IMG/VR virus record: IMGVR_UViG_2529293142_000020
Source of the DNA: a virus
Taxonomy: Duplodnaviria > Heunggongvirae > Uroviricota > Caudoviricetes
Direction: 5' to 3' (one strand)
DNA: 41,055 bases
Part shown: positions 34,532 through 35,228 of the stretch, piece after piece
Layout of the letters: each line of letters begins with the position of its first letter
Numbering within the stretch: position 1 is the first letter of the stretch
Made by a program: the position numbers and the translations under genes
The notes under the pieces: generated by a model
Database searches by the model: none
The model's input: the letters and a program-made list of their open reading frames with translations, nothing else
What the model was told of the DNA's origin: nothing

Positions 34532-35228
34532 TGCAGGATATACAGCAGGAAACACTCAATGAGTGCACTAAAACGGAGCAATCCGCGCTGGTCGTGCTCT
34601 GGGAAGTCGATCTGACGGAGGTCGGTGGCGAGCGTTATTTTTTTGTAATGAGCAGAACGAAAAAGGTGAGCCGGTCATCTGGCAGGGGCGGCAGTATCAG
34701 GCGTACCCCATTCAGGGAAGCGGCTTTGAGATGAACGGCAAAGGAGCCAGTGCAAGACCAACGCTGAAAGTCTCTAATCTGCACGGCATGGTCACCGGGA
34801 TGGCGGAAGACCTGCAGAGTCTGGTCGGCGGAACGGTGGCCAGGCGTAAGGTTTACGCCCGTTTTCTGGATGCGGTGAACTTCGTCAACGGAAACAGCGA
34901 AGCTGATCCGGAGCAGGAGGTGATCAGCCGCTGGCGCATCGAGCAGTGCAGCGAACTGAGTGCGGTCAGCGCCTCCTTTGTGTTGTCCACACCGACGGAA
35001 ACGGATGGCGCTGTTTTTCCGGGACGTATCATGCTGGCCAACACCTGCACCTGGACCTATCGCGGCGATGAGTGCGGTTATCACGGTCCGGCGATCGCGG
35101 ATGAATATGACCAGCCAACGTCCGATATCACGAAGGATAAATGCAGCAAATGCCTGAGCGGTTGTAAGTTCCGCAATAACGTCGGCAACTTTGGCGGCTT
35201 CCTTTCCATTAACAAACTTTCGCAGTAA
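34531..35228 (+). CDS. L: Minor tail protein L (lambda gpL-like), interrupted by a frameshift in the T7 run 34638-34644
   Basis: N-terminal 38 aa (MQDIQQETLNECTKTEQSALVVLWEVDLTEVGGERYFF) match lambda L, then the frame breaks; the rest of L (…PTLKVSNLHGMVTGMAED…FGGFLSINKLSQ) is in ORF 34731-35228. Confidence 0.8.

Follow-up and report, generated by a model that had tools for sequence, protein, structure and literature searches.

The window analysed here is the whole of a 41,055-nucleotide stretch of DNA (IMG/VR record IMGVR_UViG_2529293142_000020). It is a lambdoid E. coli prophage in which HK97-type head genes are followed by a lambda-type tail cluster in the order H-M-L-K-I-J-lom. The early and middle region contains an integrase gene (1-1020), an exonuclease gene, an Ead/Ea22-like gene, a DUF968 gene, the antiterminator gene Q, a tRNA cluster, a TerB-like gene, and lysis genes. 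From 21242 onward, the late half matched that of the Stx2f prophages in phi467 and E. coli 2015C-4136CT1 at 99% identity, whereas the early half was different. No phage record covered 80% of either query, and no complete E. coli genome reached 99% identity across the 21-kb halves. No stx genes were found in the window. The tRNA cluster (Met-CAT, Lys-TTT, and Arg-TCT; 17695-17935) lies downstream of Q, which is the usual position of stx in Stx phages, and the TerB-like gene (18079-18540) follows it in place of stx. Compared with E. coli Z1323CEC0003, the tRNA-Lys gene of the window lacks one T (near 17783). The early region also contains an ORF (12457-13665, within approximately 12384-13700) for an IS256/Mutator-family transposase (PF00872, E = 9e-120), and this insertion adjoins the site where a relative has a different IS beside hokD.

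The part of the tail cluster around gene L was organized as follows.

34190-34531, + strand: tail tip assembly gene M, intact, upstream of L; assigned by its position and by sequence match to annotated M or 'phage tail protein' genes, with PF05939 on the homologues
34531-35228, + strand: gene for the tail tip (minor tail) protein L; recorded length 698 nt, versus 699 nt in relatives; a 1-nt contraction interrupts the frame
34531-34734, + strand: 5' ORF of L, 67 aa, comprising 38 authentic L residues (MQDIQQETLNECTKTEQSALVVLWEVDLTEVGGERYFF) and 29 out-of-frame residues
34638-34644, + strand: run of seven T (T7) at which the frame breaks; the nearest relatives have T8 here, and lambda-type L genes have TTTTTTCT
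34731-35228, + strand: 3' ORF of L, 165 aa, corresponding to L residues 70-232, in the -1 frame; PF05100 positions 40-206, E = 5e-76
35234-35977, + strand: gene K (JAB/NlpC-P60), intact, downstream of L
35875-36522, + strand: gene I, intact, downstream of L

As recorded, L is not an uninterrupted reading frame. Positions 34630-34652 read GAG CGT TAT TTT TTT GTA ATG AGC, and the run holds exactly seven T residues. The 5' ORF starts with the ATG at 34531, loses the frame after codon 38, and ends at a TGA stop codon (34732-34734); in the profile search it had no Pfam match. The -1 frame from 34644 reads CNEQNEKGEPV... (CNEQNEKGEPVIWQGRQYQ...) and runs to the usual L stop, after ...FLSINKLSQ. An earlier sequence-only reading had held that the T7 run breaks the L frame, that the first 38 residues are those of a lambda-type L, and that one more T restores ...YFFCNEQNEKGEPV... 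and joins the ORF at 34731-35228. All three statements held. The same reading had pointed to an alignment with lambda L, and here the protein repaired by one T (232 aa) was colinear with lambda tail tip protein L (8iyk_L), residues 1-232 against 1-232, with an E value of 5.4e-150 and ~92% identity. This full-length colinearity was obtained only after one T was restored. In agreement, the Pfam profile Phage_tail_L (PF05100; cut-off, 25 bits) scored 330 bits with the repaired protein and 255 bits with the 3' ORF, and the C-terminal cysteine segments CTWTYRGDECGY and CSKCLSGC were identical in the repaired protein and lambda gpL. Homologues whose gene is intact (699 nt) carry the annotation 'phage minor tail protein L'.

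Lambda gpL (chain L of PDB entries 8IYK, 8IYL, 8K35, 8XCG, and 9E7M; PF05100) is an essential tail-tip protein in the lambda assembly pathway, required for the tail-tip initiator. The prophage in the window has the same gene order as lambda, H-M-L-K-I-J-lom, with L between M and K. It differs from lambda in that its head genes are HK97-like (portal, S78 protease, and HK97 capsid), that its L ORF as recorded splits at codon 39, and that lambda-type L genes read TTT TTC TGT at the corresponding codons and lack an eight-T tract.

Runs of seven T numbered 17 in the window, both strands included, versus 10.9 +/- 4.5 expected. The run alone is unremarkable; the signal is the frame break. The break cannot be ascribed to chance, given the ~92% identical full-length homologue and the relatives that carry T8. 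At positions 34731-34734 (ATGA), the TGA stop of the broken frame overlaps an in-frame ATG, which is codon 70 of L. Residues 70-232 could in principle be expressed by termination-reinitiation at this ATGA. The overlap is nevertheless a coincidence rather than an adaptation, since Met70 is also present in intact relatives.

The length of the tract was compared in an alignment of 11 sequences. Lambda-type L genes read TTTTTTCTGT at the site; the codons were TAT TTT TTC TGT in Lambda_4A7 and 689R5, and TAT TTC TTC TGT in PhiR49_2. In the window's closest sub-lineage, represented by phi467, E. coli 2015C-4136CT1, and one UViG, they were TAT TTT TTT TGT, which makes a T8 tract. The eight-T tract arose in this sub-lineage by a synonymous TTC-to-TTT change. 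Tracts of this kind are known indel hotspots, and one T may therefore have been lost by a true slipped-strand replication error in T8, which would leave L as a pseudogene in a decaying, tail-defective lambdoid prophage. We regard this explanation as possible but unlikely. It agrees with the under-representation of UUUUUUU in all frames of E. coli genes, which the authors of that survey partly credit to indel mutation (PMC4066793).

Intact L is recorded on ~258 contigs, mostly modern, of which 37 have the exact repaired protein (Ala104) and 221 a Val104 variant; split L products are recorded on 2-3 contigs. Each of the ten contigs that were fetched for encoding the exact repaired L (Ala104) had T8. 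The T7 allele was present in four other public records, which gives five with the window. These four were as follows.

CP039404: E. coli 377323_2f, a 'complete' RefSeq genome
AFDY02000068.1: strain H.I.8
JACFML010000050.1
AIGU01000051.1: strain DEC10F, the same contig as IMG/VR UViG 2526164662_000014

The T7 records were distributed over at least three or four backgrounds. JACFML01 (T7) was 4 substitutions from the window, and the T8 sequences were 0 substitutions from it. In a 3.3-kb alignment around the site, 377323_2f (T7) was 2 substitutions from the T8 genome 2015C-4136CT1. DEC10F (T7) was on a third haplotype. The T7 carriers therefore do not form a clade, and T7 has turned up at least four times. 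For the same reason, we rejected the notion that the T7 common to AFDY02, JACFML01, and the window was inherited and hence real. The split-frame arrangement was not conserved across diverged homologues, and T7 was seen only in records almost identical to T8 relatives. As a sign of a phase-variable tract, the T7/T8 polymorphism is confounded by sequencing platform, and most L genes lack the tract. The complete genomes contained no T9 allele, which speaks against a real slippage mutation. Pattern scans for T7/T8 gave no match in metagenome contigs or in GTDB species genomes and thus provided no denominator.

Relative to its sister genome 2015C-4136CT1, 377323_2f has 16 indels, mostly in homopolymers, over 40 kb that take in the Stx2f prophage and chromosome beside it; four of its phage genes (terminase, tape measure, M, and L) carry the annotation 'frameshifted'. 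In AFDY02, JACFML01, and DEC10F, 10-13 kb of sequence contain no coding indel other than the change from T8 to T7, and two A8 tracts were called correctly. The AFDY assembly (strain H.I.8) was made from 454 Titanium reads with Celera (PMC3491183). A second lesion suspected in DEC10F, where gp17 is called at 73 aa, was rejected; the gene is intact, and the gene caller chose another start.

Four assemblies encode the repaired L exactly (AATDBJ010000013.1, RRIK01000024.1, RRIF01000050.1, and RRID01000046.1). All four showed 0 substitutions from the window over 24533-35200 (10.7 kb), and for AATDBJ010000013.1 this identity extended to 36524 (~12 kb). The sole differences from the window are three tracts that are one base longer, at 29498, 33191, and 34638. 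Three of the seven tracts of at least 7 nt in the interval were contracted in the window and none was expanded; no hexamer was changed. The other affected features of the late region are listed below.

29498-29503, + strand: intergenic T6 tract upstream of the major tail gene; T7 in every relative
30953-34197, + strand: tape-measure gene H, split into 30953-33409 and 33202-34197 by an A7-to-A6 contraction at 33191-33196
36582-40064, + strand: tail tip/host-specificity gene J, in three ORFs (36582-39602, 39562-39921, and 39924-40064)

Gene H was intact (1079 aa, A7) in every relative, the zero-substitution sequences included. The breaks in J consist of an extra A (A5 to A6, 39537-39542) and, 335 nt later, a missing T (T5 to T4, 39872-39875), which leave the total length unchanged. 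No complete E. coli genome had both J indels together (best match, 97.1%), and the window-specific H and J products were found on no record. The J allele of the window diverges from approximately 36525 on in comparison with otherwise identical relatives, which suggests that recombination or repeat mis-assembly between prophage J genes may have taken place. A break in a cro-like gene at 7304 was considered and rejected, the ORF at 7298-7555 being intact.

Two further private single-base homopolymer indels were found. At 22213, the window has G2 in place of G3. At 15977-15981, T5 in place of T6 cuts a 128-aa ORF beside the antiterminator gene Q (15972-16301, - strand) to 109 aa; the 128-aa form was present in 9 of the 10 fetched relatives with the same Q protein. 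A single Logan contig, SRR057628_586 (2.3 kb), matched the window at 100% identity, over positions 15418-17301 and with the T5 allele included, indicating that this contraction is in the majority of the reads of some run.

The window therefore combines an indel in a long run with other private homopolymer indels relative to zero-substitution relatives. On the basis of these comparisons, the T7 in L is probably a homopolymer under-call in the record. In this explanation, L would be an ordinary lambda-type tail tip gene in which Phe-Phe-Cys is encoded as TTT TTT TGT (TTT TTC TGT in lambda), giving an eight-T tract. The tract would have been written one T short by a platform or consensus that under-calls long homopolymers, of the 454, Ion Torrent, or early nanopore type, and we infer that the DNA of the strain carries T8 with an intact L and likewise an intact H. 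Several observations favor the artefact. One is the occurrence of three contractions with no substitution relative to relatives, to which the indels in J, at 15977, and at 22213 are added. Another is the presence of the same T8-to-T7 call in assemblies from documented or evidently error-prone platforms. The scatter of the T7 carriers outside a clade and the excess of contigs with intact L over those with split products point the same way.

Under a real slippage mutation, three contractions with no substitution over 12 kb, set against several relatives of identical sequence, would be unlikely for ordinary mutation without a mutator history. The T7 carriers are enriched in 454-era or error-rich assemblies, and the mostly modern contigs have L intact. 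A true mutation is nonetheless consistent with the recurrence of T7, which five records show on three or four haplotypes at the least, with its being the sole coding lesion in three otherwise clean assemblies, and with the finding that an independent assembly of reads (SRR057628) has the same T5 at 15977. The IS256-family transposase insertion at 12457-13665 is unquestionably real and is a sign of actual decay. Since two A8 tracts are correct and no other coding indel is present in AFDY02, JACFML01, and DEC10F, an error there would have to be a tract-specific miscall. Some of the T7 alleles may be real, given that a T8 tract is a true hotspot of replication slippage. If the T7 of the window were real, L would be a pseudogene and the prophage tail-defective, because gpL is essential for the lambda tail-tip initiator; this would be an ordinary event of an already known kind.

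In comparison with assemblies that contain known homopolymer errors (454, Ion Torrent, or nanopore, with PGAP 'frameshifted' annotations), the indels of the window are likewise of a single base, confined to mononucleotide runs, mostly contractions, and several per 10-20 kb. Genome 377323_2f shares the T8-to-T7 call among its 16 indels and has L flagged 'frameshifted'. The likeness is incomplete in that the T7 call is also present in three assemblies that look clean elsewhere.

The recorded run could also be read through. If T7 were real and tolerated, tandem -1 ribosomal slippage, or the addition of one U by RNA polymerase, would yield full-length gpL; we consider this very improbable. The heptamer T_TTT_TTT consists of the third base of the Tyr codon and two Phe codons. 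In the codons TAT TTT TTT GTA, positions 34638-34644 therefore have the zero-frame arrangement X_XXY_YYZ of a slippery site, and a -1 shift gives exactly ...ERYFFCNEQ.... In E. coli, U_UU.U_UU.U by itself, with no stimulator, causes -1 frameshifting above 0.10%, and motifs of the form H_HH.U_UU.Y are among the most efficient in combination with a pseudoknot (Sharma et al., PMC4066793). However, the in-phase heptamer arises automatically when one T is deleted from TAT-TTT-TTT-TGT, and it carries no evidence of selection. No stimulatory structure was detected in the 90 nt downstream of the run (MFE, -24.3 kcal/mol; z = -0.36), where the stem begins 23 nt away, and neither a stem-loop or pseudoknot 5-9 nt downstream nor a properly spaced SD-like element upstream was present. 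A GGAGG (34617-34621) ends 16 nt upstream of the run; this stretch is unchanged in the relatives with the T8 tract but differs in 689R5, PhiR49_2, and Lambda_4A7. In addition, T7 is not conserved, and lambda-type genes interrupt the run with C. The expected yield of 0.1-0.5% would amount to a severe knock-down, and rescue of L alone would give no tails, H and J also being broken in the window.

Low-level frameshifting can offset an indel, and such 'savior' indels have been described for the G-run of herpes simplex thymidine kinase (Atkins et al., PMC5009743), which serves as a precedent for leaky decoding. The two cases are alike in that a one-base indel lies in a run of a single nucleotide, and slippage on that run could yield small amounts of the full-length protein. 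They differ in that the herpes simplex indel was drug-selected and its leak was shown experimentally, whereas L of the window carries no evidence of selection and its indel is probably not in the DNA.

A programmed frameshift site was found elsewhere in the tail gene cluster, at the chaperone genes.

30225-30611: G-like gene; its TAG stop comes directly after the heptamer
30597-30625: G/GT chaperone site, GTT AAA AAA AAG TAG, in which the A_AAA_AAG heptamer (30602-30608) abuts the TAG stop
30623-30913: T-like ORF, in the -1 frame relative to the G-like gene

Lambda G/GT is reportedly a tail chaperone programmed -1 frameshift (Xu, Hendrix and Duda class). In this phage, the real programmed -1 site is A_AAA_AAG-TAG at 30602-30611, where the G-like chaperone gene gives way to the T-like one. 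The run in L is likewise a slippery heptamer in the tail gene cluster. However, the G/GT site is conserved in all relatives, with its A8 tract unchanged in every one compared, and joins two long ORFs by design, whereas relatives lack the T7 of L, which has no stimulator and does no more than repair a deletion. Alternative decoding of L is without support beyond the trivial in-phase slippery heptamer.

A more elaborate form of leaky decoding would have T7 both real and recurrent, with T8/T7 slippage serving as a switch that shuts off tail production in lysogens while a small leak of gpL persists, that is, a contingency locus in a phage structural gene. We hold this to be highly doubtful. Only a T7 that was real, recurrent, and leaky at once would make a tail-gene switch of modest interest. 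The frame break is most likely not due to a novel mode of decoding and would be at most an ordinary slippage mutation. As biology it is most probably unreal; a real break would be a prophage pseudogene of the common kind.

The evidence says that most or all of the breaks in L, H, and J would be homopolymer miscalls. The value of the observation lies mainly in quality control: from the record as it stands, L, H, and J would be annotated as pseudogenes and the prophage as defective. The T8 tract in this sub-lineage of L is a recurrent trap, as T7 stands in five public records.

The phi467 record (LN997803) showed features of its own. In comparison with all relatives, it has a 27-nt in-frame gap in the portal gene (window-equivalent 25218-25254). 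It also has A9 for A8 (window-equivalent 28839) in an HK97-gp10-like gene, and its annotation gives this gene as a hypothetical protein of reduced length. In M, it has T5 where the relatives have T6 (window-equivalent 34411).
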